44,239 nucleotides of DNA from a virus, in IMG/VR virus record IMGVR_UViG_3300024520_000013, positions 1 to 44,239 of that record, one strand, 5' to 3'. A program made the position numbers and the translations under genes. The notes under the pieces are model-generated. The model was not told where the DNA came from, did no database searches, and worked only from the letters and a program-made list of their open reading frames with translations. Below, one piece after another: positions 10,594 through 35,652 of this stretch (its first letter is position 1; every line of letters starts with the position of its first letter).

Positions 10594-12911
10594 TGCTGCG
10601 CTCCGTTGGTGTTCTGAAAGATCCCAGGCTGACGATCCATCGATGCCATCTGACCTTGCCCCGCCATACCCGGCGTCTCACCGGGAGTGGATCCTGGTTG
10701 CCCGAACATCGCGCCCTCGCCCGGTTGCACTTGTCCATTCTGCGTACGCTGATTGCCGGTGGTACCTCGGTTCGGATCGAGAGGTTGCTGCGGCTGCGCG
10801 AAGGGCATCTGCTGGTTCTGTTGCTGCTGCTGCTCCTGCTTCCGAGCCGCAGTGCGCTGCTGCTGCAACAGGCTGACGTGCTCTTCGTAGTGCTTCGCGA
10901 GCAGCGCTCGAATCTCCGGGTCGTACTCGTCGATGTTGTCCATCGCAGGCAACATCGCTTCGAGGTGTTCCTCGTGATCGTCCTGATCGTCCACCTCGAC
11001 CTCCTGCCCCTGCAGGATCATGATCAACTCCTCGTTTTGCGTCAGCAGCTCGTGCATCGGAGTTGGAATATGGATCACCTCCTCGCCGCTAATTGCGCCG
11101 ACCATGTCGTCCCACAACAGCCGCGCCATGCGAAGCTGATCGAACGCACCCGGATGCTGCTGCATCATCGGAGCCATCAGGTTCAGGTACTGCATGAGCT
11201 GCGTTGCTCGCAGATCACCGGAGTGGAGCGAACCGAGTGCGGTGAATGTGAAGTCCACCTGGGTCTGCAAGACTTCAGGATCCACTTCCTCGTAGACCTT
11301 GAGACCCTTCGCCCCCTTGCCCAACACGCGGAACTCCATCGAGTTCGTGACGTACTGGGTGTTCATGGCATGCCACTGTTCGAGCATGTCGTTCAGCCCC
11401 ATCGTGTAGGACTGGATGTATGCACGGAGCCGTCGCGACGACTCGGACAACTTGTTCGTTGACTCGGTCGCTGTGTTGCTGTTGTCCACGCCACCGAGCA
11501 CGCGCGTTCCGCCCGACACCTCTTCGATGTCCATCGAGAGGATCGAGTCGGCGTACTGCATCTCGCCCATCGTGGACTTGAGCGAGACTTCACTAATGCC
11601 GCCGGGGTTCGCCACCGGAATGATCGCACCCGGCTCGATCTCCCACAGGTTGCCGGGAAGGTCGTCGGTGTCGGACACGAAGAGGAAAGGCGACAACGCC
11701 AGCTTGTGCGACTTCAAGGCCAGATCGCGGTGCTGGTTCATTTCCAACTGCGGTCGGATGGCGTTGTCGAGGGGCGCGATCGAGAAGAAGTCGAACGCAT
11801 CGCGGTTCGCCCTGGCGCAGGCGTATGGCCTGTGCTTATCGTCGAACGGGTTCTCTTGAATGCGGATGGGAACTTGAAAGTTCGCCACCGTGATCACGCA
11901 CTCGCGCGTGAACCCTTCGTCGTAGAGGTCGAACAAGCCCCAGATCTCGGTGACGTAGAACTCCTTCGGTCCGCCTTTGACCTCCCGGCGTCCGTAGTTG
12001 ATCTCGTGCTGTCCAGTATCCCGATCTTCCTTGTACCACGAATTGTAGTCGTGCCGCTCGATCATCGAGCTGTCGGCCAGTTCCTCCCAATTTTGGAACA
12101 CACCCTCACGACCCATCGAGGCAATCTGGTCGAACGTCATCTTGGTAACGTCACCAACGAACTTCGAGTTCGGCACGTCGGTAGCTTCCATGTCGATGAC
12201 GAAGTCGAATGGATCAACGAGTCGTTGCCTCGGCCCGTTGAACACCACTCGCTCTTCTTCCTTCAGCGACGTCTTCAGCTTTGACTTACCGGCTTCTCGA
12301 ATTCTCCTGTGCGTACGCTTGATGCGCTTCTCGCACTTGGTCTCCCACCACGTCTTGATCGCACAGAACCCGTAGGTCAACATCGTGCGAATCGCGGGCT
12401 GCACCGACATGCGGAAGCGATCCTGTTCGAGCTGCCACGTCAGGAACGCGGTAATCTTCTGGGTCTGCTTCTTGTCGGCATCCTCACGACCGTGCGTCGT
12501 GAACCACTTCTCGTAGGAGAGCACCTGCTCCTCGATGCGCGGGACCATGCGCTCGACAGCTTTGTACATCTCGGCGACCTCGCCTTCGCCTTGCCCTCCC
12601 TTCATCCCGTCCATGAGTCGACGGACTAACGCCCACTTCCGGAACGTGTCGTTGTTCTCCTCTTGGAATCTGCGAAGTGTACTCGTCACAAATTCCGTGG
12701 CTCGCTTGTCGAGCACATCGTTCGTTCCAGCGAGGTTGCGATACGGAACCTGAATCTCGTTCCACGCACGCAACTGATCCGGCGTCGGGTTCGGGGTCAG
12801 CGTGACCGTCTTCGTCTTCGACCTGACGCCCGACTGCGTTGTGGTGGAAGCACCGTCCCCGGAAGGCGCACGCTTCATGACGTTCTCGGCGTTGCCAGTC
12901 TTGACAGTCAT
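10590..12911 (-). CDS. Portal protein candidate with a Q/G-rich C-terminal tail
   Basis: 773 aa, between the terminase and the scaffold/capsid genes. The last ~100 aa are low complexity (QEQQQQQNQQ...GQGQM). Confidence 0.75.
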   Translation of the reverse strand: MTVKTGNAENVMKRAPSGDGASTTTQSGVRSKTKTVTLTPNPTPDQLRAWNEIQVPYRNLAGTNDVLDKRATEFVTSTLRRFQEENNDTFRKWALVRRLMDGMKGGQGEGEVAEMYKAVERMVPRIEEQVLSYEKWFTTHGREDADKKQTQKITAFLTWQLEQDRFRMSVQPAIRTMLTYGFCAIKTWWETKCEKRIKRTHRRIREAGKSKLKTSLKEEERVVFNGPRQRLVDPFDFVIDMEATDVPNSKFVGDVTKMTFDQIASMGREGVFQNWEELADSSMIERHDYNSWYKEDRDTGQHEINYGRREVKGGPKEFYVTEIWGLFDLYDEGFTRECVITVANFQVPIRIQENPFDDKHRPYACARANRDAFDFFSIAPLDNAIRPQLEMNQHRDLALKSHKLALSPFLFVSDTDDLPGNLWEIEPGAIIPVANPGGISEVSLKSTMGEMQYADSILSMDIEEVSGGTRVLGGVDNSNTATESTNKLSESSRRLRAYIQSYTMGLNDMLEQWHAMNTQYVTNSMEFRVLGKGAKGLKVYEEVDPEVLQTQVDFTFTALGSLHSGDLRATQLMQYLNLMAPMMQQHPGAFDQLRMARLLWDDMVGAISGEEVIHIPTPMHELLTQNEELIMILQGQEVEVDDQDDHEEHLEAMLPAMDNIDEYDPEIRALLAKHYEEHVSLLQQQRTAARKQEQQQQQNQQMPFAQPQQPLDPNRGTTGNQRTQNGQVQPGEGAMFGQPGSTPGETPGMAGQGQMASMDRQPGIFQNTNGAQQ

Positions 12912-15409: not shown

Positions 15410-15435
15410 CCCGATCTGGTTAGTCCCAGATCTGG
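15410..15435. promoter_or_regulatory. CCCGATCTGG (15410-15419) plus palindromic CCAGATCTGG (15426-15435) in a divergent intergenic region
   Basis: A copy of the recurrent intergenic motif, sitting between the minus-strand start at 15385 and the plus-strand start at 15488. Confidence 0.5.
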
Positions 15436-17826: not shown

Positions 17827-18405
17827 TTGCAAGAGCACGTCAAGACGGCATCGTTCCCGTTCCATCCCTCGATCGGAGACTGGCTCGCCGCCGGTGGTGA
17901 CCTCACCGTAAACGGCCAGAGCTTCACCGCGAACACAACACGAGGCGACCCGAAGAGCGGCGACGAGTCCGCCGTGTTCGAAGCGTTCTTCAACCTCGGC
18001 GAAGGTGCGTGGGTGAAGGGCACGGTCACCTACTACCCGAACGATCCGATCGCGGACTGCTGGTTCATGCTCGGGTATGGGCACGAGGGATGGAGCGCAC
18101 CGCACGTCAAGCGACAGGACGTGTTCGTCGTCGATGCGAAGTCTACCGTATCGATCGTGCAACTCGACAAACTGAAGTACGGCGAGGTTCTGAACACGCA
18201 AACCACGCTGCCGCGACACTTCACCTACGACTTCGACAAGGGAGTGATCTCAAAGACGAAGAGGACGTCGTCGGGCGATCGCGACATTCATAACCTGGGC
18301 GAAGGCATCGACACCGGCGAAGAAAAACCAGGACCAAACTACGAACCAGACCCAATACTCGACGACGACGACCTCGACCAACCTCCACCAGAACTATATC
18401 CATGA
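17827..18405 (+). CDS. Hypothetical protein with an acidic C-terminal tail
   Basis: 192-aa ORF with a TTG start per the ORF track, beta-rich, ending ILDDDDLDQPPPELYP. Confidence 0.5.
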   Translation: MQEHVKTASFPFHPSIGDWLAAGGDLTVNGQSFTANTTRGDPKSGDESAVFEAFFNLGEGAWVKGTVTYYPNDPIADCWFMLGYGHEGWSAPHVKRQDVFVVDAKSTVSIVQLDKLKYGEVLNTQTTLPRHFTYDFDKGVISKTKRTSSGDRDIHNLGEGIDTGEEKPGPNYEPDPILDDDDLDQPPPELYP

Positions 18406-18602
18406 CCAAAACACTGTATGGGCGAGACAACTGCCCCATCTGCAAAAAGACCGCCGACTACCTTCACCCATATCACGATCGGAAAGGTTACTACTCCGGG
18501 CGGGCTTGTTCCGACCGTTGCGCACGTTCATTACCGGGCCAAGGGGAGATGTGGAACTACGAGCCGGACCATGGGGAAGACGACGAAGGAGATGCGTGGT
18601 GA
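18402..18602 (+). CDS. Small Cys-containing protein (CPIC motif)
   Basis: 66 aa, LYGRDNCPICKK..., with ATGA overlap to the upstream gene. Confidence 0.5.
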   Translation: MTKTLYGRDNCPICKKTADYLHPYHDRKGYYSGRACSDRCARSLPGQGEMWNYEPDHGEDDEGDAW

Positions 18603-18748
18603 GGCGAAAACCGAAACCTCCTGACACTTTTCCCGTGGCCCCGGCAACGGCTCCCGATGAGCCCGCGAACCACCTTCTTCTTCCCGAAAGCCGGGGCCTC
18701 GGGACCTTTCGCACACCCGTAGTCACTCTCACGGAGAGGGAGGGATGA
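18596..18748 (+). CDS. Possible small ORF bridging two genes
   Basis: A GTG start overlaps the upstream TGA, and the stop overlaps the ATG at 18745 (ATGA). About 50 aa and Pro-rich, so weak. Confidence 0.2.
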   Translation: MVRRKPKPPDTFPVAPATAPDEPANHLLLPESRGLGTFRTPVVTLTEREG

Positions 18749-19191
18749 GTCTCGTGCTGCAACCGCTCAACCTGGATGAGGCGAAGCTCTTCGTCAAGCG
18801 CCACCATCGCCACCATGAGCCGCCGCTGTCTCACAAGTTCTCGATCGGTGTGAACGACGGAGAGACTGTTCGCGGCGTAATCATCATCGGGCGCCCAGTG
18901 TCGCGAGTTCTTGACAACGGTTGGACGGTTGAAGTAACCCGGTGCTGCACTGATGGCGCGAAGAACGCCGCGTCAATGCTCTATGCGGCAGCGTGGCGCG
19001 CAGCTCGATCAATGGGTTACCGAAGACTCATCACCTACACGCTCGCGACTGAGCCCGGGACGTCCCTGATCGCCGCGGGATTCCGCGTGTTGTACAAGAC
19101 CAAACCCAATCGGTCGTGGAACGCTCCAGGCCGACCACGGGTCGACAAGCACCCACTCGGCGCAAAGCTGCTATGGGAGAGGGAGGCTTGA
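18745..19191 (+). CDS. XF1762-family protein (GNAT-like fold)
   Basis: FVKRHHRHHEPP..HKFSIGV...IIGRPVSRVLDNGWTVEVTRCCTDG..NAASMLYAAAWRAARSMGYRRLITYTL matches my memory of this prophage family. Confidence 0.65.
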   Translation: MSLVLQPLNLDEAKLFVKRHHRHHEPPLSHKFSIGVNDGETVRGVIIIGRPVSRVLDNGWTVEVTRCCTDGAKNAASMLYAAAWRAARSMGYRRLITYTLATEPGTSLIAAGFRVLYKTKPNRSWNAPGRPRVDKHPLGAKLLWEREA

Positions 19192-19197
19192 ACGACC

Positions 19198-19389
19198 TTG
19201 CTGACCCCGGCTGAGTACGAAAGTACAGGATACCCCGAGCTCGGATGCTGCGAGGAACGGCTGCGGTTGCTCGCCGACAAACTCCGCCTCACCAGGGAGG
19301 TGGCTTCCCTCACGCGGCTGTACGGACTCCTGAAACTCCAGGTTGAACTCATTTACTCGGAGAAGGATGACATCACGAAGGACAACTGA
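19198..19389 (+). CDS. Hypothetical small protein
   Basis: 63-aa ORF with a TTG start, helical. Confidence 0.4.
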   Translation: MLTPAEYESTGYPELGCCEERLRLLADKLRLTREVASLTRLYGLLKLQVELIYSEKDDITKDN

Positions 19390-19404
19390 AGCAAACCCCT
19401 TCAA

Positions 19405-20076
19405 TTGACGACGATCTATCTATCAAGCCCCGGATCCCAATTGCGAGCGGACTACTGCCGGAACCTTCCGGTGCTCATGTCGTTCGGGGTCTACCGGAAG
19501 GTCGGATGGGTGGAGAAGTACGTCCCGTCGTTCTCAGGTCTGCTCATCGATTCGGGAGCTTACTCCGTCCTGACCACCGGGACTGAGATCAACGTGGACG
19601 AGTTCGCCGAGTGGGCGCAGAGATTCCCGCACGCAGATGCGGTGGCGGCACTGGATGACATCTCGGGGGACTGGGAGCAGGGACTCCGCAACTGGGAAGC
19701 GCATCCGTGGATGTTCCCTACGTTTCACGACACCGACCCTTGGGAAGCTCTCGCCGGTATCTTGGAGAAACATCCCAAGTGGATCGGGCTTGGAATGAAA
19801 CCGCCGAGAACGTCTGCACGATGGCTAGACGAGACTCTGGAACGGATACCAGATCAAATCCACATCCACGGGTGGGAGTTGCGAGCGTTCACGGATCGCC
19901 ACCGCATCGACTCGTTCGACTCAACCAACTGGTTCCGCGACTCATGGGCGGTCAAGAACGCATATCCCTGGCTAACCCCTGCCGAGTCCTTGGAGATCAT
20001 CGTCAAGCGATACCAGCGCGAACACCGAATCATCAAAACAAGGAGCACAACGCCATGTCTGTTCGATACCCAGTGA
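19405..20076 (+). CDS. dpdA: DpdA-like (TGT-family) DNA transglycosylase candidate
   Basis: LLIDSGAYSV and IDSFDSTNWFR resemble the two catalytic-Asp motifs of TGT/DpdA. There is no Zn-site cysteine cluster. The gene overlaps queE by 22 nt. TTG start per the ORF track. Confidence 0.55.
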   Translation: MTTIYLSSPGSQLRADYCRNLPVLMSFGVYRKVGWVEKYVPSFSGLLIDSGAYSVLTTGTEINVDEFAEWAQRFPHADAVAALDDISGDWEQGLRNWEAHPWMFPTFHDTDPWEALAGILEKHPKWIGLGMKPPRTSARWLDETLERIPDQIHIHGWELRAFTDRHRIDSFDSTNWFRDSWAVKNAYPWLTPAESLEIIVKRYQREHRIIKTRSTTPCLFDTQ

Positions 20077-20666
20077 ACGAGATCTTCTTCTCGATCCAAG
20101 GCGAAGCGCACTTGCGCGGCTTCCAGATGGCATTCCTTCGCCTAGCCGGTTGCTCGGTCGGATGCCCAGAATGCGACACAAACTACGCGGCAAAGTCCAC
20201 CCACGATGCGCGAGACCTATCCTTCCGAGTTCTGGAGGAGATTCCCTCATCAGTCAAGGACAGGTGGGTGTGGATCACCGGAGGAGAACCCACCGATCAC
20301 GATTTGGTCCCGCTGATTCGCGAACTTCGCGCCCGTGGATTGTCGGTCGCCGTCGCCACCGCTGGGCACAAGCGGTTCACCCCAACGGTTGACTGGTTGT
20401 CTGTCTCACCTCACAAGGCTGAAGACTTCTCCCAACGCTACGGACACGAGATCAAACTAGTAGACGGACTCCACGGGCTTGACCTCGACGAGTTCGTTGG
20501 CGAACACCGCGACGGATACACCGACTTCTGGTACCGCTACGTGCAACCGCTGTCGGTGGACGGGGTGGAGCAACCCGACAGTCTGGCCCGATGCATGGAC
20601 TTCCTTGACCGGCACCCGAATTGGGCGCTCTCCCGTCAAGACCATCTCGCTATAGGAGTGCGCTGA
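20055..20666 (+). CDS. queE: 7-carboxy-7-deazaguanine synthase QueE (radical SAM)
   Basis: The ATG at 20055 follows AAGGAG. Signature elements are NEIFFSIQGEA, LAGCSVGCPECDTNY, ITGGEP, SVSPHK, YVQPLS and a C-terminal WALSRQDHLAIGVR. The longer ORF-track start at 19707 is a spurious extension. Confidence 0.9.
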   Translation: MSVRYPVNEIFFSIQGEAHLRGFQMAFLRLAGCSVGCPECDTNYAAKSTHDARDLSFRVLEEIPSSVKDRWVWITGGEPTDHDLVPLIRELRARGLSVAVATAGHKRFTPTVDWLSVSPHKAEDFSQRYGHEIKLVDGLHGLDLDEFVGEHRDGYTDFWYRYVQPLSVDGVEQPDSLARCMDFLDRHPNWALSRQDHLAIGVR

Positions 20667-20691
20667 TCTAACTCCAACAGGGCCGACTGAC

Positions 20692-21087
20692 ATGACAACC
20701 GAACCGCAACCTATCCCAACCTTCGACTACACCAACTTCGTCGCCAACAAGACCATGACCATAGTCTCGTGTGGCACCGTTGTCCTTCGTAAGGAGTTCA
20801 ACGTTGAGGGGTTTGCTTCTACACCAACGCTGAACGCAAACGACGTAATCACGCTCTGCAAAGGCTACAGTGGGTTGATGGCTGCGCTGGAGCTCCAAGC
20901 TAGCGCGCTAGAAGAACACGACGGGCAGAACTGGGACATCTTGGCGACTGTGCTGTCGGAGTGTGCCCGCGCCGCCATCGCCAAAGCGATGGACCAGCGC
21001 ATCGCCGAGCTGGTGGCCGAAGCCAAGCGACTGGAGCGTGAAGCGCCATCCCACCGGAAATCTGATGGACCGCTACGACCTGACTGA
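20692..21087 (+). CDS. Hypothetical protein
   Basis: 131-aa ORF. Confidence 0.5.
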   Translation: MTTEPQPIPTFDYTNFVANKTMTIVSCGTVVLRKEFNVEGFASTPTLNANDVITLCKGYSGLMAALELQASALEEHDGQNWDILATVLSECARAAIAKAMDQRIAELVAEAKRLEREAPSHRKSDGPLRPD

Positions 21088-21355
21088 CCTGACAACCGGG
21101 CTCGACCACAAAGCCACACCAAACTACGGCAACGGCAAGTGGGTGTTGGCCTCCGATGCCTTCGCTTGGGTCGACGAACTCACCGCAGACATCGCGCACC
21201 TGCAGCACGAGGTGGACGCGGTGAAGGCAGACTACGAGCGTGCCACCTACCGCTCCTACCAAGACCGTCCCTTCATCTGCGTCAGACCTACGCCACTAAA
21301 GCTGGCAGCAGATTCGGAACGTGCGCAAGGTGAGGGCCCCACGAAAGATACATAG
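21065..21355 (+). CDS. Hypothetical protein
   Basis: Internal ATG at 21065 (MDRYDLTDL), 96 aa, overlapping the previous gene by 23 nt. Confidence 0.5.
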   Translation: MDRYDLTDLTTGLDHKATPNYGNGKWVLASDAFAWVDELTADIAHLQHEVDAVKADYERATYRSYQDRPFICVRPTPLKLAADSERAQGEGPTKDT

Positions 21356-21406
21356 GATAGGGGGCCCCATTGGTCGCTCCCCCCTTGCTCAAATCGGCAT
21401 TTTTTC

Positions 21407-21416
21407 CTCGATCTGG
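21407..21416. promoter_or_regulatory. Variant of the recurrent motif (CTCGATCTGG)
   Basis: Sits at the start of the 633-bp non-coding region, just after a T6 run. Confidence 0.4.
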
Positions 21417-21541
21417 GCGTGGCGGGACGGATCCAGTATCCTGTGCGCCATTCGATCCTAATCCCTTCGCGTAGTGTGGGTTATGTCGGTGGTTCGATAC
21501 CCTTGGGACCGTTGCAAGGGACCAATTGACGAGATGGCAGT

Positions 21542-21582
21542 ACGTGGCAGCTACGTGGCAGCGACGTGGCACTTACGTGGCA
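21542..21582. repeat. Four ACGTGGCA iterons with an exact 11-bp period, plus one degenerate copy upstream
   Basis: Copies begin at 21542, 21553, 21564 and 21575. AGATGGCA at 21532 is a 6/8 match. Confidence 0.85.
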
Positions 21583-21690
21583 GCTATAACAAGGGAAGCG
21601 GACTAGACTAACGTGCTTTGTTAGGGTGTTCGTGGCACTTGCCAGAAATATAGACACACCACACCGTGTTTCCGTATGCACGTTTCTGTG

Positions 21691-21706
21691 GTGTAAGCGC
21701 TTACAC
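21691..21706. repeat. Perfect 16-bp palindrome GTGTAAGCGCTTACAC
   Basis: Read directly. It is preceded by ACACCACA...TGTGGTGT, an 8-bp inverted repeat with a ~23-nt spacer. Confidence 0.85.
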
Positions 21707-21732
21707 GAATCGCCTATACGGGTCTGTACGTA

Positions 21733-21768
21733 CTGTACATGCCATGTACAGTACAAGTACAAGTACAA
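21733..21768. repeat. 9-bp inverted repeat CTGTACATG-c-CATGTACAG followed by (GTACAA)x3
   Basis: Read directly. There are seven GTAC tetramers within ~45 bp, and this is the most AT-rich patch of the region. Confidence 0.85.
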
Positions 21769-21814
21769 GCCCCGTGGGTATGGGCAATTAGGCGTTCTGG
21801 CCGAGTGCCACGAA

Positions 21815-21847
21815 CCCGCCACCATCCCGCCACCATCCCGCCACGAT
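21815..21847. repeat. Three tandem 11-bp units CCCGCCACCAT (third copy CCCGCCACGAT)
   Basis: Read directly; period 11 bp. Confidence 0.8.
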
Positions 21848-21988
21848 TGCGCCATTCGAGACCATCCGTTCGCACCCTTCGCGACGTTTGCCGGTTGACA
21901 AGCTCTTGCCACCGATCGCGCTGTTGGTCGAGAATGTCGGCAATGGACGCGAACCACATCTGGTGAGTGCCACAACCTACGAAACCGA

Positions 21989-22213
21989 ATGAACCGAAAC
22001 CAACGAGACGAGCCCGTTACGGATCGCCCTCTGCCAGGGCGAATCTACTCACTTACCGGCGGCCCCGGTGTCCCTTGCATCGCGAACGGCGATAGCTGGC
22101 GCGAGTCCGATCTCGGCGACGCCGACGAATTCCACGCAAACGAACGTGCAAAAGTTCTCGCACGCCGAGCTGAAAAGGACGCACGACGTCACATACGCGA
22201 GGAGGGAATCTAG
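21989..22213 (+). CDS. Hypothetical protein
   Basis: 74-aa ORF, the first gene after the iteron region. Confidence 0.45.
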   Translation: MNRNQRDEPVTDRPLPGRIYSLTGGPGVPCIANGDSWRESDLGDADEFHANERAKVLARRAEKDARRHIREEGI

Positions 22214-22214
22214 C

Positions 22215-22871
22215 ATGGTACGCAAAACGAAAGCGGAACGGCAAGCGGACGAGAACCGCGCGCGAATCGTGCGCCACCTGGAAACGTCTGGTGTCATCGA
22301 TTCCATGATTGCATTCGCCGAGAAACATGACGACTGGCGCGAACAAATCGACGCGCACAATTACGGTGAACGTCTCGGCAAGATCCCGCGCGATTGCACC
22401 GGTGTCGTGCGCCAGATTCGAAACAACATCACTGCGAACGTGATGGAAGAGTGGCCGAACCTCGCAACTCTTTCGCGATTCGTCCGCATCGCGATTTGCT
22501 TCGATGGTGACGCGTTCCGCCAGCCTGGACCGTGCGCCGAGATTGCATCGCTACTCCGCCAGATGGCGGAACGGTTCGAAGCCGAAACGGATCTCGAATT
22601 GATCCCGCAGTGGTATGGAACGTGGCGCGATGCAAACGGCAACGCATGCGCAAACGTCGATATCGAAACAACGGAAGCGAACGGGCAGAACCTAGGACGC
22701 ATCGCGTCATCCGGTACCGGTGGTATTGTCGATGGGCTTGTGGCTGCGCTGGAGACGCTGCTGTTTGGTGTCACCGAAGACGTATCCAACAACAATGGGC
22801 GCGTCGACTTGCCCGCCCTCGAGGACACTGCCCGCGCCGCGCTTGCCGCCGCCAAGGGGGGAGACCGATGA
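22215..22871 (+). CDS. Hypothetical protein
   Basis: I moved the start to the ATG at 22215 (MVRKTKAERQ), right after the upstream TAG. 218 aa. Confidence 0.55.
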   Translation: MVRKTKAERQADENRARIVRHLETSGVIDSMIAFAEKHDDWREQIDAHNYGERLGKIPRDCTGVVRQIRNNITANVMEEWPNLATLSRFVRIAICFDGDAFRQPGPCAEIASLLRQMAERFEAETDLELIPQWYGTWRDANGNACANVDIETTEANGQNLGRIASSGTGGIVDGLVAALETLLFGVTEDVSNNNGRVDLPALEDTARAALAAAKGGDR

Positions 22872-22931
22872 CACGTCCAGACTACGAACCTATCACCGCT
22901 CGTGTTGAATCGTCGCAGGAGGACAGCAGCA

Positions 22932-23120
22932 ATGAATAGCTTTGCCCGGATGCAGGGTCTGCTGAAGGATGCGAACGGCGCACCCTACGCGCCCACATCG
23001 GCCGAGCTTGACGCGATCGCCGAACGACATTTGGTCACGGTACGCGAACGGGCCGAGCTTGCCAACGGACAAGGGGTGCTACCCGGTCCCGGTTTCGTCA
23101 AGGGTGGCGACGATGGCTAG
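22932..23120 (+). CDS. Hypothetical small protein
   Basis: ATG at 22932 preceded by AGGAGGA; 62 aa. Confidence 0.45.
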   Translation: MNSFARMQGLLKDANGAPYAPTSAELDAIAERHLVTVRERAELANGQGVLPGPGFVKGGDDG

Positions 23121-23802
23121 ACTCGGAATCGTTCTGTACCGGGGTCCGTCAAAATTCTCCGGCGAGACCATCGAAGCTATCGCAACGGAAAGCGAGAACA
23201 AGAAAACGCGCGGAATGCTGGTCATACACATTCTGCCGACGATCGACGTTGCGAAAGCGGACCGACCGCACCTATCGGTATGTCCGTCCGACTGCCCGTT
23301 TCACAAAGCGTGTTATGTGAACTGGTCACAGTCCCCGCCGATGGTGCAACGATGGCATAGTGGAAAACCCGTCTGGACACCGCGCGCGGTTCGCGACGTT
23401 GCGCGCGGTCGATCGATTCGCATCGGCGCGGAAGGTGATCCATGTGCAGTTCCCGTTGGCGTCTGGCGAAACGTGTTGTCGGATTGCGCATCCTGGACGT
23501 CCTATACGCATGCATGGCGCGATGGTCGCAACCGCTACTATCGCCCCTTCTCAATGGCTAGCGTCGAATCACCAGCGCAAGCTCTCGAAGCGATAGCGAA
23601 AGGGTGGCGAACCTACCGAGTCCGACCGCGCGATACCGAGACGATGGCGGGAGAGATTGACTGCCCATCGTCGCGCGGTGTTCTGTGCGCATCATGCGGA
23701 TTGTGCAAGGGCGAACACGAAACCGCCCCGACGATTTCGATACCGGCGCACGGTGGCGCGGTGTCCGCTCGTGAGGCGAACCGTATCGCGCTTGCCGTCT
23801 AG
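23113..23802 (+). CDS. Cys-rich hypothetical protein
   Basis: ATG at 23113 (MARLGIVLY), overlapping the upstream stop. 229 aa with scattered Cys (CPSDCPFHKACY, GDPCAVP, CPSSRGVLCASCGLC). Confidence 0.55.
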   Translation: MARLGIVLYRGPSKFSGETIEAIATESENKKTRGMLVIHILPTIDVAKADRPHLSVCPSDCPFHKACYVNWSQSPPMVQRWHSGKPVWTPRAVRDVARGRSIRIGAEGDPCAVPVGVWRNVLSDCASWTSYTHAWRDGRNRYYRPFSMASVESPAQALEAIAKGWRTYRVRPRDTETMAGEIDCPSSRGVLCASCGLCKGEHETAPTISIPAHGGAVSAREANRIALAV

Positions 23803-23820
23803 GACGTTCGAAAGCTCGAA

Positions 23821-23855
23821 GGGCCCCACGTCGCAATCTGGCGAACGTGGGGCCC
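23821..23855 (+). terminator. 11-bp perfect stem-loop after the Cys-rich gene
   Basis: GGGCCCCACGT (23821-23831) pairs with ACGTGGGGCCC (23845-23855) across a 13-nt loop. The following U-tract (GATTCTGT) is weak. Confidence 0.4.
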
Positions 23856-23875
23856 GATTCTGTACGAGTCATCGG

Positions 23876-24034
23876 TCCAGGTTCGCCCGTCCAGGTTCGC
23901 GCGGTTCGCTTCCCGTCTCGCTGGCTACTCCGCGCGCCACGTTCGCCCGTGAGCGATTCGCGCCACGTTCGCGCATGATTCCGCGAACTATTTTTGGGGC
24001 CCGTACAGAGCATTCTAGGGCCCTTCTCGCGAAC
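23876..24034. repeat. Cluster of GTTCGC/GCGAAC hexamers (about 5 direct, 2 inverted within the span, plus 1 inverted copy at 23841-23846 in the upstream hairpin), embedded in longer repeats
   Basis: TCCAGGTTCGC(C/G)CG occurs in tandem at 23876-23903. GCCACGTTCGC(C/G)C occurs at 23936 and 23962. GCGAAC occurs at 23983 and 24029 within the span and at 23841 just upstream of it. Confidence 0.75.
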
Positions 24035-24142
24035 GCATCCGGGAGACGCTAGCGAGAGCCCGAAACAGCCACACCACGCCCAACCCACGCCCCCCCCTCG
24101 ATTCACGCCTAGACGCCTGCGCAGAGAGGGAGGCGGGCTCAG

Positions 24143-24175
24143 TGGCACGGGAACTGGATTGGCACGGGAACTGGA
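24143..24175. repeat. Direct repeat TGGCACGGGAACTGGA x2 with a 17-bp period
   Basis: Copies at 24143-24158 and 24160-24175. Confidence 0.85.
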
Positions 24176-24268
24176 CTGGACCCTAGGTAGGACGGACTGT
24201 GGAACTAAACGGTTCTAGCGAGTTGCCCCCTAGCGTGTTCGTGAGGATAGTTCTGTCTTTCTGAGGCC

Positions 24269-24631
24269 TTGCAAGGAGACCTACAACTGAATGCAAAACG
24301 CGCACTGGAATTGCTCGTCAAGGCGATCGAGGCTACGAGCATCGACCCAGAGATCAAAGTTCACCCTGCGTTCACACAAGCGAAACGATTTCTGCCGGTG
24401 GAGCTGGCCGACGCCAAGTTTGTGTGCAGCAAGTGCGGCGACACAGACGTCGAGATCTTCATGGGTGCATGGTTGCCCGCGAACAAACCGTTTGCTGAGT
24501 TGATCCACGGCACAGACTGGCAGTGGGATCACGAAGTGCCTACCGGCTACACCGAGAAGTCGAAGGGGTACTGCACCAAGTGTGAGGACAACGTGATCGT
24601 CCACGAGAAGGAGGTTGAGAACCCAGATTAG
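24269..24631 (+). CDS. Zinc-ribbon protein
   Basis: CSKCGD ... CTKCED pairs. The start is uncertain: TTG at 24269 per the ORF track, but AAGGAGA lies inside it, so the true start may be a few codons downstream. Confidence 0.5.
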   Translation: MQGDLQLNAKRALELLVKAIEATSIDPEIKVHPAFTQAKRFLPVELADAKFVCSKCGDTDVEIFMGAWLPANKPFAELIHGTDWQWDHEVPTGYTEKSKGYCTKCEDNVIVHEKEVENPD

Positions 24632-24657
24632 TGCGGAGAAGGGCACTAAAACTCTTC

Positions 24658-24684
24658 GGAATCTGGTTGCGAGAACCAAATCTG
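24658..24684. promoter_or_regulatory. Two ATCTGG half-motifs (GGAATCTGG, CAAATCTGG) followed by GTAGTC, resembling the 15410-15440 element
   Basis: Compare CCGATCTGGTTAGTCCCAGATCTGGATAGTC (15411) with GGAATCTGGTTGCGAGAACCAAATCTGGGTAGTC (24658). Both lie upstream of plus-strand genes. Confidence 0.4.
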
Positions 24685-24791
24685 GGTAGTCTGGAACGCG
24701 GTTCCGACTGCTTCGTAATCGTGAGGGATTCATTCTCCCGTAGGCATGAGTGCGAGGTGGTCGGGACCATCACCCAACCACAAGGAGGTTC

Positions 24792-24950
24792 ATGGCCGCA
24801 AAGAAGAAGACTCGCGTGAAGTTGCTCGCACACTGCTGGCGATGCGGGGGGCCGATCTACATCGGCGACAAGACTACGGGTTGCGTTGACACCACCGCAC
24901 CAGACAATCGCGTGCGTCACTTCTCCTGCGCACCGTGGATATCCAAGTGA
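24792..24950 (+). CDS. Small zinc-ribbon protein
   Basis: ATG at 24792 preceded by AAGGAGG. The sequence is MAAKKKTRVKLLAHCWRCGG... Confidence 0.55.
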   Translation: MAAKKKTRVKLLAHCWRCGGPIYIGDKTTGCVDTTAPDNRVRHFSCAPWISK

Positions 24951-25381
24951 TGCAGCAACTCTACATCCTCGACGAGAACAAGCGACCCAAGGAAGCGTCG
25001 CGCCTCGAATGGCACAAGTGGATGGACAACGTCGAGAACCGACGCGTCGCACAGACCGAGTTGCACGCGCCGCTATTCGACGAAGACGTGTTGGTCGCGA
25101 CGGTGTTCACCGGAGTGCCATGCGGAGACGGTTTGCACCTCTTCGAGACGTTCGTCATCGGATCGAAATATGAGCACGATGATTTTTCTCAAACCCACCC
25201 AACGTGGGACGTGGCGGCAGCTATTCACGATTCGGTCGTTGCCGAACTGGCGCGGGTCGGGCTCACCGGCGATGGCGATAGCGCGGGCAGCGAATGCTTC
25301 CCGTTCGACGTAGCAGACCGTGCGAGCACTTGGAACGGCAAGTCGGAGGCCAAGGGACATGGCACCGATCCCGGCACATAG
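24950..25381 (+). CDS. Hypothetical protein (common small phage family)
   Basis: The ATG at 24950 overlaps the upstream TGA (TGATG). The sequence MQQLYILDENKRPKEASRLEWHKW...VATVFTGV...LFETFV resembles a widespread phage family of unknown function. Confidence 0.55.
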   Translation: MQQLYILDENKRPKEASRLEWHKWMDNVENRRVAQTELHAPLFDEDVLVATVFTGVPCGDGLHLFETFVIGSKYEHDDFSQTHPTWDVAAAIHDSVVAELARVGLTGDGDSAGSECFPFDVADRASTWNGKSEAKGHGTDPGT

Positions 25382-25463: not shown

Positions 25464-25805
25464 TCATTCGTCCATTCCCTTCCTCATCCAATTTGGTTCG
25501 GCAGACGCGCCGCTCATCTTCTCTTTGTGCGACAGCATTCTATCACCGACATCGCGCAAGAACTTCTTCAGCCCCATGTCCTTGTTATACGCCTTCGTAG
25601 AGAGTTCCATCCACAGTTTGATCCCGCGCTCCTGGACCTTGATATCGTCGGACTCGACCATCCGAGTGATCGCATCCATGACCGGAGCGAGCGTATCGCT
25701 GATGGTCTCGTGCTCTTTCGAGAGACGCCGCGCAAGCTCGCGGATCGCGACGTCGATGTCACCGGAGAGGGCAGCTAGTTGGTAAACCGGTTCTCTTTCT
25801 GCCAT
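25464..25805 (-). CDS. Hypothetical helical protein
   Basis: Start at the internal ATG 25805 (MAEREPVYQ), giving 113 aa and a 31-nt overlap with the primase gene end. Confidence 0.45.
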   Translation of the reverse strand: MAEREPVYQLAALSGDIDVAIRELARRLSKEHETISDTLAPVMDAITRMVESDDIKVQERGIKLWMELSTKAYNKDMGLKKFLRDVGDRMLSHKEKMSGASAEPNWMRKGMDE

Positions 25806-28564
25806 CTCTCGCGGTGCATCCTCTCCACTGCAGCGAGCAGCAACTTCGCCAGCTCCGGTTTGCAGATCAGGACTCTCGGTCCCGACGTCTTGCGATCGAC
25901 TGCCATCTCGTTCTGAATCAGGTACTTCTTGATTTGAATCCACAGTTTGTTGCTCCACAGTTTTGCCGTGCCCGCGTTGAGGCACACCGCGACCAGGGAA
26001 CCCTGGAACTCGACGGCGTTAGACTCATAGTCCGGATGTTGTCGCGTGCCACTGATCGGCTTGAGATACCCGATCGTGATCGCGTTGTGTGATGCCTTGT
26101 TCGGCACGAGGTGTCCCGTGTGCTCGTCGAGCAGCGTGGCCTTGCCCGCTGCGATGTTCGCCTCGATCTCGGCAACCATCTCGTTCGCAACGCCACCTTC
26201 GGAGAGCGCATCGCTCTGCACGTTGAAGAGCGTTCGCACGACGCGCCCGTCCCACGTCTCGGTGATCTCGTCGTGCAGCATCTCGTCCATGCCATCCGTC
26301 ACGTCGCGACACCAGTCTGCGAACAGATGCAGCGTCGCGCTGAAGAGCGACACCCGCTCCCACACCCGGTGCATGTTGTTCGCCTCGTTCCGCCAGTTGA
26401 TACTCTCCTCGTCGAACACCTCGCCGACCTTGCGCTCGCACTCGCGGAACAGGTTGGTGAACCTGTCCTCCACCTCGCCGCGCAACCGCATGCACCAGTT
26501 GATCCACCCCGACATCACGTACGGCAGCAAGTGCCGCTTATCCATGGTGCGGTCGTGCGGAATCTTCCACTCGTCGGCACCGGGACCAGGGCGGAGTCGC
26601 GGCACGTCGATGATCAGCGAGCGCGCCAGCAGAGACTGGTCGCCAGCCGGGAGTTGCTCGCACGTCACCACCGGGATCGAGTGTCCAGCCTGCGAGGTGC
26701 GGAGTTTGCCGGTCTGATCCAAGCGACCGCGCCCGGTGCCCTGGGCGACCGAGTGCAGCACCCGCATGATCTGCTGCCGAGCCATCTCCGACTGCGCCTC
26801 CCACTGGAGATCATCGACCACGATCGAGGCATCCCCTACAGCCTCCAGAACGCGCTCTACGGACAGCGGAGTGCTCGACCATGAAAGCAGACTCTGATGG
26901 TTCCAGAAGTCTCCATAGAGGCTCTGACCCACCTTCACGCGCGTCGTCTTGCAAGCCATGGTCTGGCCGCGCACGAACATCAGGAATCGCGACTGCTGCG
27001 GAGCGAGCAGGCGACGCACCGGAGCGAGGATCGCGCCGACGATGATCGGTGCCATCACGTCGGGATAGTGCGATCGGTAGGCTGACTCCCACAGCAGCTC
27101 GACACCCTCGCGGACCTTCCTCGGATCCGGATGCGGAAGCTTCATCTCGTCGAGGATGTTGTGCTCGGACACCATCCGCATCTTCGTGTTCGCCTTCGGG
27201 TTGTCGTCGTCGTACAGCACGTCGGGCGTGAAGAACTCCTTGCACTCCTTCGAGGGGAATCCCCACAGCCACCCGGTGTCGCGATTTGTGTAGTCGCCGC
27301 CGGTCGTCTCCTGGATGTGCATCCACATGTCGTCGGCGTCCTTCGGGTGGAGCTGCCACTCCGAAGTGCCGCCGGGAGTCGCCGCGATCTCCTTCTCGAA
27401 CTTCGCGCCCTGCTCGTGAGTCACGGTCAAGTGCCGCCCATCCTTGTGCGTTAGCTCGACCACGTAGCTGCGCCCCGTCGAGACGCCACCTTCGAGGATC
27501 AGACCCTGCTCGATGATCTTGCCGGTGAACGTCGCGATCCGCATCTCGCCGCTGCGCGTCTCACGCCACACACACCCGTCTGCCGTGAATACCCCGTTGC
27601 ACTGGATGCTCGGTCCAGTTGCCACCGGGCAGGCTGCGACCAGCGCTTCCCACGCGGTTATGCGCTCCTCGGTCGAGTGCCGGTACAGGTAGTCCGAGAT
27701 GTCCTTGTCCTGTTCGAGCTTCACCGTGCGGATCACCGCGACACCGATCTTGCGGAGGTCGTTCCGCATCTTGGCTTCCGCCTTCTTGCCGGGGTCGTCG
27801 TTGTCGAAGCAGATAATCACTTCGCTGCCCTCACCGGTAGGAATGAACCCTGCCGGGAAGTGCTTCGTGCGCAGCGTCGCGCAGCCCCCGGTGGTCGTGA
27901 TCGCGTTCACGCCGATGGACAGCAATGCCAGACAGTCGGGCTCGCCCTCGCAGATCACAAGCGGACGTCCCGCGACGTGGTAGTCGGCGACCAGCCACAG
28001 CGGATACGCGATCATCTTCGCGAACCGTACGCTCATCTTGTTGGAGTTGTCCGAGTCCCTGTAGGGCACCGTCTTCACGTTCGTGATCCGACCTTCCACG
28101 TCCAGAACCGGAAAGCGCAGACGTTCGTTCGCCATGCCGATGTGCGCGTGCTCCCAGAGCTTCTCGGAGATCGCGTGCCGTTCGAGGTAGTCGCGCGCCT
28201 CAGCACCATCGCCGGTGAGCAGGTTGCGCGCCCACTCCTCGACCTTCTTCCCATCCGGCAACACCGGTTGTTGTGCCGTCTCCTCCGACACCCGACCGCG
28301 CAACTCCTTGTACGCGTCCTCCTCGGCCATGCTCATCCGCACCGCGTAGAGCTTCTCCAGGTGACCGTTTCCGCACTTCGTGTGGCAGTTCCAGAACCCG
28401 TTGTTCGCGCGGACCGTGAACTCGGAGTCGCCCCCGTGAAACGGGCACCCCTTGACGAGGAACAGATCTCCGTCAGTCGTCTCGCGTCGCCCCCGTACTT
28501 CGACGCCCATCTCGCGCAGAATGCCGTCCACGTCCTGCCGATCCCGCCACTTCATGTCCGCCAT
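25775..28564 (-). CDS. DNA primase (CHC2-type zinc finger plus TOPRIM) fused to a P-loop NTPase/helicase-like domain
   Basis: CPFHGGDSEFTVRANNGFWNCHTKCGNG (zinc finger); ICEGEPDCLAL and ICFDNDDPG (TOPRIM); GQTMACKTT and IVVDDLQWE (Walker A/B-like). Confidence 0.85.
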   Translation of the reverse strand: MADMKWRDRQDVDGILREMGVEVRGRRETTDGDLFLVKGCPFHGGDSEFTVRANNGFWNCHTKCGNGHLEKLYAVRMSMAEEDAYKELRGRVSEETAQQPVLPDGKKVEEWARNLLTGDGAEARDYLERHAISEKLWEHAHIGMANERLRFPVLDVEGRITNVKTVPYRDSDNSNKMSVRFAKMIAYPLWLVADYHVAGRPLVICEGEPDCLALLSIGVNAITTTGGCATLRTKHFPAGFIPTGEGSEVIICFDNDDPGKKAEAKMRNDLRKIGVAVIRTVKLEQDKDISDYLYRHSTEERITAWEALVAACPVATGPSIQCNGVFTADGCVWRETRSGEMRIATFTGKIIEQGLILEGGVSTGRSYVVELTHKDGRHLTVTHEQGAKFEKEIAATPGGTSEWQLHPKDADDMWMHIQETTGGDYTNRDTGWLWGFPSKECKEFFTPDVLYDDDNPKANTKMRMVSEHNILDEMKLPHPDPRKVREGVELLWESAYRSHYPDVMAPIIVGAILAPVRRLLAPQQSRFLMFVRGQTMACKTTRVKVGQSLYGDFWNHQSLLSWSSTPLSVERVLEAVGDASIVVDDLQWEAQSEMARQQIMRVLHSVAQGTGRGRLDQTGKLRTSQAGHSIPVVTCEQLPAGDQSLLARSLIIDVPRLRPGPGADEWKIPHDRTMDKRHLLPYVMSGWINWCMRLRGEVEDRFTNLFRECERKVGEVFDEESINWRNEANNMHRVWERVSLFSATLHLFADWCRDVTDGMDEMLHDEITETWDGRVVRTLFNVQSDALSEGGVANEMVAEIEANIAAGKATLLDEHTGHLVPNKASHNAITIGYLKPISGTRQHPDYESNAVEFQGSLVAVCLNAGTAKLWSNKLWIQIKKYLIQNEMAVDRKTSGPRVLICKPELAKLLLAAVERMHRERWQKENRFTN

Positions 28565-33137: not shown

Positions 33138-33173
33138 CCGCCTCTTCTCCTGCGCGCCTGACCGCGCGTCTCT

Positions 33174-33437
33174 TGGGACCAATCCCTGGGACCAATCTTG
33201 GTCCCAGGCGGCGCGTTTGGTCCCAAATGGGAACCTGACCGAAAACGCGCTACGTGACCTCTCGCTGCCGCCGACGACGTCGACAGCCCGATTTGCTCAC
33301 TGGTCCCACATCCCCGCTGTGCGGATTTAGGATCCTGTGAGTATAAAAACTCTTGCGGGTTCAAGTCCCGCCTCTCGCACCACTTAGCTCGCTGGGCCGC
33401 AGCCGCACTAGCCTGTGGGACCATTTTGTGGGACCAA
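33174..33437. mobile_element. attP: seven TGGGACCA arm-type sites flanking a tRNA-derived core
   Basis: Direct copies at 33174, 33187, 33416 and 33429. Inverted copies (TGGTCCCA) at 33199, 33218 and 33301. Copies 2 and 3 form TGGGACCAA-tc-TTGGTCCCA. Confidence 0.75.
33355..33382 (+). other. tRNA 3-prime fragment (T-arm, acceptor strand and ACCA) serving as the attP core
   Basis: GCGGG-TTCAAGT-CCCGC-CTCTCGC-A-CCA. The upstream 17 nt cannot fold into an anticodon arm, so this is a fragment and not a full gene. Confidence 0.8.
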
Positions 33438-33466
33438 ACAGGCCAAATCGTGGTAGTGTCCTGGGC

Positions 33467-34519
33467 ATGCCTACGAGAAAGAAGCTTCCCACTGGTGTCG
33501 TCCAACACGGCGACAAGTTCCGCTACCGCATCACGATCGACGGCAAACGCCGGAACTCGTCGTGCTTCGGTACTCCCGAGCAAGCTGCCCTGGCACGCTC
33601 GGAAGCCACCGGTCTGGCGAAGGCTCGACCGGCCAAACGGGCGACCCTGCAGGACGGGTTCGACCGGGTGATCGACCGTGGCGGCATCCGCCCCGGCACC
33701 CTCGAATTCTACCAGGACGTCTTCGCCAAGATCGTGAAGATCATCCCCGCCGACACCGGTCTGCTCGCCATCGCCGAGCCGAAGCTCCTGGCGTTCCTGA
33801 AGCGTCGCGAGAACGAGACCGGCATCCCGACGATCGTCAAGGAGCTGGTCATGCTCGGGCGGATCTTCAACGTCTGCGTCGAGGACGGGCTCGTCGAAAC
33901 CAACCCGGTCAGACCATTCCGAGCGAAGTACCGGAACCGGCTGAAGACCCGGAAGAAGGATCCCCGGTGGGTCAGCCTGGGGGAGTTCGAGGAGGTCTTC
34001 GCCAGGATGGCTGAATGGGCCCCTGTGAAGCGTCACGCGAACCGGTGCGGAGATCTCGCCGTGGACGTGCTCGTCCCGCAGATTCTCTTCTGCACCGGTC
34101 TGAGGCGCGCTGAACTGGGTAGGCTCAAGGTCAAGGACATCGACCTCGCCGATGGCGTGATCTACCCCGAAGGCAAGTGCAGCGACGCGACCGTCGCGAT
34201 CCCGAAGCGTCTGCGCCCCTACCTCGTCGCACACCTCAAGACGCTGAAGCCGAACGAGTTCATCGTCCCGCAGCGGAAGGGCGACAGGGACGGTGCCGCT
34301 GTGCGTCGCGTCTTCCAGCGCTGGCAGCAGCGACTCCAGATCGACTGGACGCCGCACGCGCTGCGCCACGGGCTTGGTAGCCTCCTGGCCGCGCAGGGTG
34401 CGAACACGAAGACGATCATGCGTGCGCTGCGCCATGAGACACCGGAAATGAGCCTGCACTACCAGTCCATGACGGACGAGTCCGTGCGGAACGCAGTAGA
34501 CGACGCTCTCGCCGGGTAG
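33467..34519 (+). CDS. int: Tyrosine integrase
   Basis: ATG at 33467 (MPTRKKLPTG). Catalytic landmarks TGLRRAEL, HALRHGLGS and LRHETPEMSLHY. The longer ORF-track start runs through the tRNA fragment. Confidence 0.95.
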   Translation: MPTRKKLPTGVVQHGDKFRYRITIDGKRRNSSCFGTPEQAALARSEATGLAKARPAKRATLQDGFDRVIDRGGIRPGTLEFYQDVFAKIVKIIPADTGLLAIAEPKLLAFLKRRENETGIPTIVKELVMLGRIFNVCVEDGLVETNPVRPFRAKYRNRLKTRKKDPRWVSLGEFEEVFARMAEWAPVKRHANRCGDLAVDVLVPQILFCTGLRRAELGRLKVKDIDLADGVIYPEGKCSDATVAIPKRLRPYLVAHLKTLKPNEFIVPQRKGDRDGAAVRRVFQRWQQRLQIDWTPHALRHGLGSLLAAQGANTKTIMRALRHETPEMSLHYQSMTDESVRNAVDDALAG

Positions 34520-34857: not shown

Positions 34858-35046
34858 CTATCGGGTGACCCAGAACACAATCACTCCGACCAGCAAGTGC
34901 GTCGCGAGGAGCACCAATGCGAGCAAGAATCCCGAGACGCGCGGGGGGTAGGGTTCCGCGCGCGGCCGGAGAGGTGCGGGAGTGTAGCCGGGTTCGGGAG
35001 TTAGGTCCGACCTCGTTTCTCTCTTGCCGTTACGCGCCGCCGCCAT
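34858..35046 (-). CDS. Possible small membrane protein
   Basis: 62 aa with a Pro-rich N-terminus and the C-terminal hydrophobic segment FLLALVLLATHLLVGVIVFW. Overlaps the upstream gene by 46 nt. Confidence 0.35.
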   Translation of the reverse strand: MAAARNGKRETRSDLTPEPGYTPAPLRPRAEPYPPRVSGFLLALVLLATHLLVGVIVFWVTR

Positions 35047-35612
35047 TTCTTCAGCTCCCCTTCGATAGCTTGATTGATGGTCGCCCAGGTGCGCGAAAAA
35101 TCGGGACAGATGTTGGCGAGGTGGTCCTGCACCATCTCCAGTTTGGTCTCAAACTCTTCCTCTCCGATTGGTTCCAGCGACGGACTCAACTTGCAACCCA
35201 CCGGGAGTTGCCATGACTCCGCGACTTGAACACGGTCGAGCAGATTTGCAAGACCCTTTTCGTTGCGCACATTGAGCAGGAACCCAATGAAGTGATGGTC
35301 GAGGAACAGGCCAGCAGGCAACAAACGCTTCGACCGGGAAGTCTTGCTGTTCGCCTCGCTCGGCAGGATATCGTAGATGCTGCACTTCGCCGCCTTGGCG
35401 ATCGAGGCGATGGCATAGCAATTCGGTGTCGAACGGTTCTGCTCCCACTTCTTGTAGCCAGAGAGCGAGATTGACTCGCTCCACAACTCCTCGTGGATTG
35501 CACAAACGCGCTCGAAGAACTCGTCCTGGTTGAGCTTCGGGATCAGCACGTTTCGCACTGCCCGGATCCGCCCTCCCAGGTCGTACGGGATAGTGATCGT
35601 GGTAGGCTTCAT
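35001..35612 (-). CDS. XRE-type HTH protein (repressor candidate)
   Basis: LGGRIRAVRNVL...ISLSGYKKWEQNRSTPNCYAIASIAKAAKCSIYDIL. I prefer the ATG at 35612 over the TTG at 35633. Confidence 0.6.
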   Translation of the reverse strand: MKPTTITIPYDLGGRIRAVRNVLIPKLNQDEFFERVCAIHEELWSESISLSGYKKWEQNRSTPNCYAIASIAKAAKCSIYDILPSEANSKTSRSKRLLPAGLFLDHHFIGFLLNVRNEKGLANLLDRVQVAESWQLPVGCKLSPSLEPIGEEEFETKLEMVQDHLANICPDFSRTWATINQAIEGELKKWRRRVTAREKRGRT

Positions 35613-35652
35613 GGAACCCAGAGAATGCCTCAAGATTCCAGAAAAGTCCCGC

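Follow-up and report, generated by a model that had tools for sequence, protein, structure and literature searches.

A probable replication origin with opposed 11-bp iterons in a 44-kb temperate phage genome

The repeat region found between two plus-strand gene blocks of a temperate phage genome is a real, non-random and conserved cis element, and it is probably the vegetative replication origin of this phage. It would be an iteron origin of the SaPI type, unusual in its location 3.9 kb from the initiator gene. This reading is favoured by the opposed iterons around the DNA with the lowest GC content of the genome, by a helicase of predicted Rep/Cch fold encoded in the same phage, by the same layout in a second contig (L035), and by similar arrays beside primase-helicase genes of three unrelated elements. 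The initial annotation of this DNA had proposed either an iteron origin or a repressor array; the origin is the prediction favoured here, and the regulatory reading has been weakened.

The phage genome

The window, i.e. the whole stretch of 44,239 nucleotides analysed (IMG/VR record IMGVR_UViG_3300024520_000013), opens and closes with identical sequences of 127 bases (1-127 and 44113-44239), so that it represents a circularly closed assembly of a phage genome of 44,112 bp with a GC content of 59%. The length of the overlap is that of a typical assembler k-mer. Structural genes recognised by Pfam include those for an SU10-type major capsid protein and a portal protein. A minus-strand recombination and replication block carries genes for Sak4-like, DUF669, PD-(D/E)XK and ERCC4 proteins and for the 929 amino acid primase-helicase discussed below, and elsewhere a tyrosine integrase is encoded with an excisionase-like neighbour. 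The plus-strand block 17827-21355, which ends at the gap containing the repeats, resembles a DNA-modification module: it includes an XF1762-family/Mom-like protein (18745-19191), a DpdA-like transglycosylase (19405-20076) and a QueE-like radical SAM protein (within 19707-20666), the 7-deazaguanine gene set being directly upstream of the gap.

The phage belongs to an almost orphan temperate lineage, in which most genes have no homologues. Several of its proteins gave no homologue at all, the search of positions 20000-24000 detected no DNA-level similarity to cultured phages, and the gap showed no DNA similarity to plasmids. An ORF of 2116 amino acids (37746-44096, minus strand) located between the structural and the replication blocks matched nothing in Pfam, in PHROGs or among PDB sequences. 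A 39-bp tandem repeat (2.3 copies with a match of 94%; 29-117, equal to 44141-44229) is found in the short interval that separates the stop of the gene 169-1128 from the start of this large gene. Near the integrase and the excisionase-like gene, an ORF of 210 amino acids (35001-35633, minus strand) has a weak match to the RstR phage-repressor family (E 0.002) and is a candidate lysogeny repressor.

A gene-free gap with two opposed iteron arrays

All repeat elements are in a gene-free gap (21356-22214) flanked by the two plus-strand gene blocks. The initial annotation had described 633 bp of non-coding DNA (21356-21988). The non-coding nature of this DNA holds, including the claim that no credible ORF covers it, since no ORF of the gap has coding-like GC3 (codon-position GC); its extent does not, as the gap probably continues to 22214, for a length of 859 bp. 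In an identical 6.9-kb contig whose genes were called independently, the interval between 21355 and 22215 has no gene assigned to it. There is also no match to a tRNA in the gap, nor to any Rfam family even at E values up to 10.

Within 555 bp (21419-21973) twelve boxes with a GTGGC core are present. Six cores are on the plus strand (21419, 21544, 21555, 21566, 21577 and 21632) and six on the minus strand (21807, 21818, 21829, 21840, 21908 and 21969), and every plus box is to the left of every minus box, so that two 11-bp-phased arrays face each other. The ACGTGGCA boxes on the left and the CCCGCCAC units on the right are one box family with the GTGGC core on opposite strands; the earlier reading had not recognised the CCCGCCAC units as reverse complements of the GTGGC boxes. 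Shared by the boxes is an 8-bp conserved unit, in strict 11-bp phasing.

From left to right, the first element is an outlying plus box, CGTGGCGGGAC (21417-21427), of the same type as the units of the right array. The left iteron array (21531-21585, plus strand) is composed of five 11-bp units, GAGATGGCAGT, ACGTGGCAGCT, ACGTGGCAGCG, ACGTGGCACTT and again ACGTGGCAGCT, and tandem-repeat analysis gives it a period of 11 and 4.8 copies. An inner left box, TCGTGGCACTTGCCAGA (21630-21646, plus strand), follows 55 bp (5 x 11) beyond the last unit of this array and forms an inverted pair with 21803-21824. The right iteron array (21803-21850, minus strand) has four 11-bp units, ATCGTGGCGGG, ATGGTGGCGGG, ATGGTGGCGGG and TTCGTGGCACTC, and further to the right are two more minus-strand boxes, CGGTGGCAAGA (21904-21916) and the outlying GTTGTGGCACTCACCAGA (21959-21975), the latter being the mirror partner of 21630-21646. 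The individual repeats listed in the initial annotation are all found: the four ACGTGGCA boxes at 11-bp spacing (21542, 21553, 21564 and 21575), which are the only copies on that strand in the whole genome, the degenerate fifth unit (GAGATGGCAGT at 21531), the additional GTGGCAC (21632) and GTGCCAC (21805 and 21967) copies, and the tandem 11-bp units of the right array (21807-21844, period 11, 3.5 copies).

The clustering is far beyond what chance would give. From the genome average 1.7 boxes are expected in place of 12 (Poisson 2.5e-7), the richest 555-bp window in any of 200 Markov-simulated genomes held 9 cores, and no other 555-bp window of the phage genome approaches the box density of the region. 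Pairs of same-strand cores exactly 11 bp apart number six, all inside the two arrays, against a simulated mean of 0.18. The heptamer CGTGGCA occurs six times in the region and three times in the remaining 43 kb, there as scattered single copies (7514, 12433 and 17446), and GTGGCACT has four copies in the region and none elsewhere in the genome.

An 11-bp period and an array of five units are also features of a plasmid centromere. The parC site of plasmid R1 consists of two sets of five 11-bp direct repeats flanking the parMR promoter and works with ParR and ParM; by analogy, a small adaptor protein could segregate the phage as a plasmid prophage from the repeats described here. The period, the arrangement in two sets and the five units of the left array are alike in both. 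The phage arrays, however, are inverted relative to each other, whereas the R1 sets are direct, and no ParM, ParA or ParR-like domain was detected in any ORF scanned. Moreover, the phage integrates, as judged from its integrase, its excisionase-like gene and an attP in tRNA-derived sequence. A partition site is thus highly improbable.

The spacer between the arrays

The spacer between the two arrays is about 220 bp long (21586-21802). It makes up most of the 200 bp with the lowest GC content of the whole genome (21570-21769; 47% versus 59%), which is the proposed melting region. The AT-richness is modest, the GC content being 47% in these 200 bp and 40% in the best stretch of 40 bp.

Two palindromes are present in the spacer. 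The perfect 16-bp palindrome GTGTAAGCGCTTACAC, already noted in the initial annotation at 21691, occupies 21691-21706; its centre, 21698.5, is no more than about 5 bp away from the point midway between the two arrays. The second element had been described as a 9-bp inverted repeat running into three GTACAA units. Both parts exist and both are longer: the arms measure 12 nt (21730-21741 and 21743-21754), giving a 25-bp palindrome (21730-21754) with 1 nt between the arms, and the GTACAA tandem repeat (21746-21769, plus strand) has 4.2 copies. As single-stranded DNA the 25-bp palindrome is predicted to form an 11-bp hairpin (dG -9.4 kcal/mol, z -4.3), and none of 200 shuffled sequences folds as well.

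Conservation of the layout

The conservation of the repeats in related DNA had been named as a check on the initial proposal, and the layout is indeed conserved in L035. This metagenomic contig, reached through a 55% identical homologue of the DUF7227 protein encoded at 23113-23802 in the phage, is otherwise unrelated to the phage, the DUF7227 gene being the only gene in common. Its 960-bp gene-free stretch follows the same plan: five plus boxes (619-668; GTGGC or GTGAC core followed by A/G-G) and five minus boxes (889-939), spaced 11-12 bp, with about 230 nt between the two sets. An imperfect palindrome is found at the centre, together with a GTAC-rich hairpin (-8.5 kcal/mol, z -2.6), and the 11-mer GTACAGTACAA, which in the window is contained in the GTACAA repeat, is identical in both. 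The rest of the spacer is poorly conserved. The L035 contig is too short to cover its replication genes. The exact three-box iteron pattern was absent from IMG/VR.

These data bear on the proposal that the region is the gene of a structured non-coding RNA, or else the phage attP, which taken together we regard as extremely improbable. For an RNA one may cite the palindromes, which can fold into hairpins. Against it, there is no Rfam match at E values up to 10, the spacer as a whole does not fold unusually well (z -1.6), and it is the sequence between the arrays which is poorly conserved in L035; layout and boxes being kept and the spacer not, the pattern is the one expected for protein-binding sites and not for RNA. 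An attP was taken seriously since tyrosine integrases, too, have arm-type sites which are phased repeats inverted between the two arms, and the layout of a lambda-type attP likewise comprises inverted arm-type repeats around a central inverted repeat. Lambda-type attP sites have a core identical to the host attB, often the 3' end of a tRNA, and arm-type repeats, and are usually next to int. Unlike such a core, the box region gave no tRNA-like match, and it is excluded as attP because the true attP was found beside the integrase.

That site, the probable attP at 33165-33445, is directly upstream of the integrase ORF listed as 33353-34519, whose real start codon is probably downstream of 33353. 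It includes a tRNA 3' end, GCGGGTTCAAGTCCCGCCTCTCGCACCA (33355-33382), and seven TGGGACCAA arm-type repeats in both orientations (33174, 33187, 33198, 33217, 33300, 33416 and 33429); perfect copies of TGGGACCAA number five genome-wide, all of them at attP. A separate observation is that next to the left iteron array, on its left side, TGGGACCGTTGCAAGGGACCAA (21504-21525) agrees with the attP repeats 33174-33195 at 17 of 22 positions and keeps the 13-bp spacing of this pair. The likeness could be due to chance, or the integrase might bind here at the origin.

When sequences were scanned for the pattern of phased GTGGC arrays, four further loci with arrays on both strands were detected, and in three of them (L141, L075 and L144) the arrays are less than 400 bp from a gene for a D5/SF3-type primase-helicase. 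In a metagenome-assembled contig of Pseudonocardia (L141) a Prim-Pol/D5_N/DUF5906 gene is followed, 6 bp beyond its stop codon, by the arrays, which have a low-GC centre. An AT-rich phage contig (L075) has four plus four AACCTGTGGCA units on the two sides of a centre of very high AT content; a PriCT_2/D5_N gene follows about 350 nt downstream, and a terminase gene is also close. The third locus (L144) has three AAGTGGCTAGA units and inverted pairs with an AT-rich centre, upstream of a DUF5906/Pox_D5 gene. The fourth, of Gordonia (L139), has 9-bp repeats beside a resolvase, with no helicase among the five ORFs tested. The GTGGC core shared by these loci carries no weight, because GTGGC was the query. 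What does support the view that a layout of this kind would be an origin is the recurrence of primase-helicase genes next to it. Four of the six matches of the convergent-array scan (L136, L137, L138 and L140) were discarded as chance or one-sided matches in very GC-rich genomes. A different type of element was noted in a 12.7-kb IMG/VR contig (L067), whose inverted terminal repeats (1-180 and 12520-12697) include the 11-bp unit GGTCGTGGCCA five times; the contig may represent a linear element whose ends bear repeats.

The same loci are relevant to a further possibility, i.e. that the region is a pac-like packaging site in which the small terminase subunit binds the repeat clusters flanking a cleavage region. 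The pac site of phage P1 has repeat clusters on both sides of a central cleavage region, which the clusters flanking the centre of the phage region resemble, and the assembly of the contig as a circle is compatible with headful packaging. Yet pac sites are usually in or beside the small terminase gene. The terminase genes of this phage (13201-15385; large terminase recognised by PHROGs) are about 6 kb away, on the strand opposite to the gene blocks flanking the gap. In the three other elements, moreover, the similar arrays adjoin primase-helicase genes and only L075 has a terminase gene close by. A packaging site is therefore very improbable.

Promoter and operator evidence

The most serious alternative to an origin is an operator array, in which a regulator would coat the phased boxes cooperatively and switch the downstream plus-strand operon (22215-25381), possibly by looping. 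Lying between two gene blocks on the same strand, the gap must hold a terminator and a promoter; the 11-bp phasing would suit cooperative binding by a regulator, and the element is upstream of same-strand genes in both the window and L035. Only one sigma-70-like match (21906-21935) is present; its first hexamer overlaps with the box at 21908, and the box at 21969 is just downstream of the match. That match, however, is at chance level (one found, 0.7 expected). None of the genes flanking the gap has a DNA-binding domain match, twelve boxes over 555 bp around a low-GC centre exceed what an operator needs, and the similar arrays in other elements adjoin primase-helicase genes.

In addition, the recurrent intergenic motif of this genome is a different one, the GTGGC cluster being limited to one locus. 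The 10-mer CCCGATCTGG is found at 15410, 15426 (as CCAGATCTGG), 16766, 17638 and 37557, in gaps between likely genes and partly as 16-bp tandem pairs; the degenerate pattern with which these sites were found has nine matches, about one being expected. CCCGATCTGG may serve as the operator of a repressor or as a promoter element, and a nearly identical sequence, CTCGATCTGG, is located at 21408. Thus cis functions other than the origin are accounted for elsewhere, by the attP at 33165-33445 and by the operator-like CCCGATCTGG at five intergenic sites. On this evidence we consider the operator array rather unlikely as an explanation of the whole region, which may nevertheless have a regulatory role, alone or in addition.

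The primase-helicase and other candidate binding proteins

The proposed initiator is the 929 amino acid primase-helicase encoded on the minus strand at 25775-28564, with a DnaG-type primase, a DUF927 helicase and a C-terminal domain. Pfam recognises Toprim_2 and DUF927 in it, PHROGs a primase, and NCBIfam gives a weak Cch1 match. Sequence profiles against the PDB have weak matches to the SCCmec helicase Cch (5dgk, E 6e-4) and to SaPIbov1 Rep (8tch, E 0.03). With the AlphaFold model (pLDDT 83.5) as query, the best Foldseek match is again 5dgk (E 1e-13, 630 columns) and the second 8tch (E 8e-12, 619 columns of a 487-residue chain), followed by DnaG primases which match the N-terminal part of the protein. 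The model thus points to an initiator helicase with the fold of SaPI Rep and Cch. In the C-terminal part of the model, residues 855-905 have a helix-helix-strand-strand pattern and are a candidate for a winged helix. The primase had been named among the possible binding proteins in the initial annotation, and the primase-helicase is the likely candidate.

The Walker A motif of the helicase (residues 533-540) is unusual, reading GQTMACKT with a cysteine at the expected second glycine. It is kept in a 76% identical relative (P0020), and distant relatives have the canonical G-x-S-G-x-G-K-T. The 2.4-kb contig of the close relative ends before the region. In four relatives with about 30% identity (L032, L142, L143 and L145) the gene order ERCC4-primase is that of the phage, and these contigs either stop before a comparable gap or have no arrays. 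A metagenome scan with the primase alignment returned a single contig, short and irrelevant.

The two early proteins encoded downstream of the gap, also suggested as binders at first, are poor candidates. For the product of 22215-22871, a comparison with 5.8 billion proteins gave no homologue, and phage records did not contain one either. That of 23113-23802 is the DUF7227/phrog_2554 protein, the only conserved neighbour of the gap; it has conserved cysteine clusters and no DNA-binding match. Seven cysteines are invariant in the family alignment A4 (C57, C61, C67, C184, C192, C195 and C198), which suggests metal or iron-sulfur clusters, and the model of the protein (pLDDT 84) matches no structure in the PDB. 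As a binder of the boxes the DUF7227 protein was rejected: its gene occurs at other loci (L002-L007 and L036-L039) which have no GTGGC arrays, so it is probably a mere neighbour.

Comparison with known origins

The closest known systems are the SaPI origins (SaPIbov1, SaPI1 and SaPI5 Pri-Rep). These have six to twelve iterons, placed in two halves of opposite direction on either side of a central AT-rich region, on which two hexamers are thought to load (PMC9371898). The iterons are bound by the C-terminal winged-helix domain of the self-loading Rep helicase (PMC9371898; PMC7581432), which in some cases is fused to a primase (PMC9371898). With twelve boxes the phage region is within this range of iteron numbers, and six plus boxes to the left and six minus boxes to the right of the lowest-GC 200 bp reproduce the divided arrangement. 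There are also differences. The SaPI origin is directly downstream of rep, whereas in the phage the right array ends at 21850 and the stop of the helicase gene is at 25775, a distance of 3.9 kb with the genes 22215-25381 in between. The SaPI iterons measure 5-6 nt, in contrast to the 8-bp conserved unit and strict 11-bp phasing found here; perfect palindromes are present in the phage centre, whose AT-richness is modest; the phage primase is of the DnaG type; and the carrier is a 44-kb temperate phage and not a satellite.

In SCCmec, the helicase Cch is a DUF927 protein and a relative of SaPIbov1 Rep (PMC7581432). The available text of PMC7581432 defines no origin for Cch itself. A putative origin is described for Cch2, which through its C-terminal domain binds direct repeats in an intergenic origin with three AAGTG iterons directly downstream of its gene (PMC7581432). 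Cch has in common with the phage protein both DUF927 and the best structural match (5dgk), but neither Cch nor Cch2 has a fused primase.

In the satellite phage P4 primase, helicase and origin binding are functions of one protein, alpha, which recognises octamer repeats (TGTTCACC) in both orientations. The phage described here resembles P4 in having primase, helicase and, as proposed, origin binding in one protein, and in the two orientations of its repeats. P4 also needs a second repeat cluster (crr) in cis, several kb away, whereas the phage genome has no second GTGGC cluster. Classical iteron origins of plasmids and lambda have direct iterons of 17-22 bp in one orientation and DnaA boxes. 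The phage units, in contrast, are of 11 bp and form two opposed sets, and no DnaA-type site (TTATCCACA with up to one mismatch) is present in 21300-22250.

The core origins of SV40 and papillomaviruses have dyad-symmetric sites around a central palindrome, thought to direct two opposed SF3 helicase rings. They differ in belonging to eukaryotic viruses, in having the origin-binding domain N-terminal to the helicase, and in being much more compact. A comparison with this type of core origin has also been drawn in PMC7581432.

Two traits of the phage region are unusual within the known kind of origin, i.e. the distance from the initiator gene and the strict dyad symmetry around a perfect palindrome. 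A more far-reaching interpretation would see in it a remote dyad-symmetric origin like the core origins of eukaryotic DNA viruses, in which opposed Rep/Cch-type rings nucleate on the palindrome with the arrays as loading platforms, and in the GTGGC-core iterons a recognition code common to DUF927/D5-type initiator helicases across high-GC Actinomycetota elements, AT-rich phages and this phage. We think this unlikely to be correct.

Proposed mechanism and implications

If the region is a SaPI-type origin, initiation could be envisaged as follows. The 929 amino acid primase-helicase would recognise the GTGGC-core boxes via its C-terminal domain. Boxes that follow each other at 11 bp are turned to almost the same side of the helix, which would allow several protomers to bind next to one another. 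As the left and right boxes face each other, two helicase rings are proposed to assemble in opposite orientations, flanking the low-GC spacer 21586-21802. The spacer would melt or extrude hairpins and the helicases would load themselves; the fused DnaG-type primase would then make primers and a host DNA polymerase would extend them, the latter being invoked because the phage ORFs that were scanned gave no polymerase domain. GC skew, which had been suggested as a check, gave a weak local sign change near 22000 but no decisive inflection, the skew following the direction of transcription.

If confirmed, an almost orphan lineage of temperate phages would gain a defined pair of origin and initiator, and the self-loading helicase origin known from SaPI and SCCmec would be in use by full-sized phages outside the staphylococci. 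It would also follow that an origin need not adjoin the gene of its initiator. With the box pattern, origins of this type could easily be searched for in phage contigs from metagenomes, and the origin and initiator pair could serve as a compact replicon for the host of the phage.
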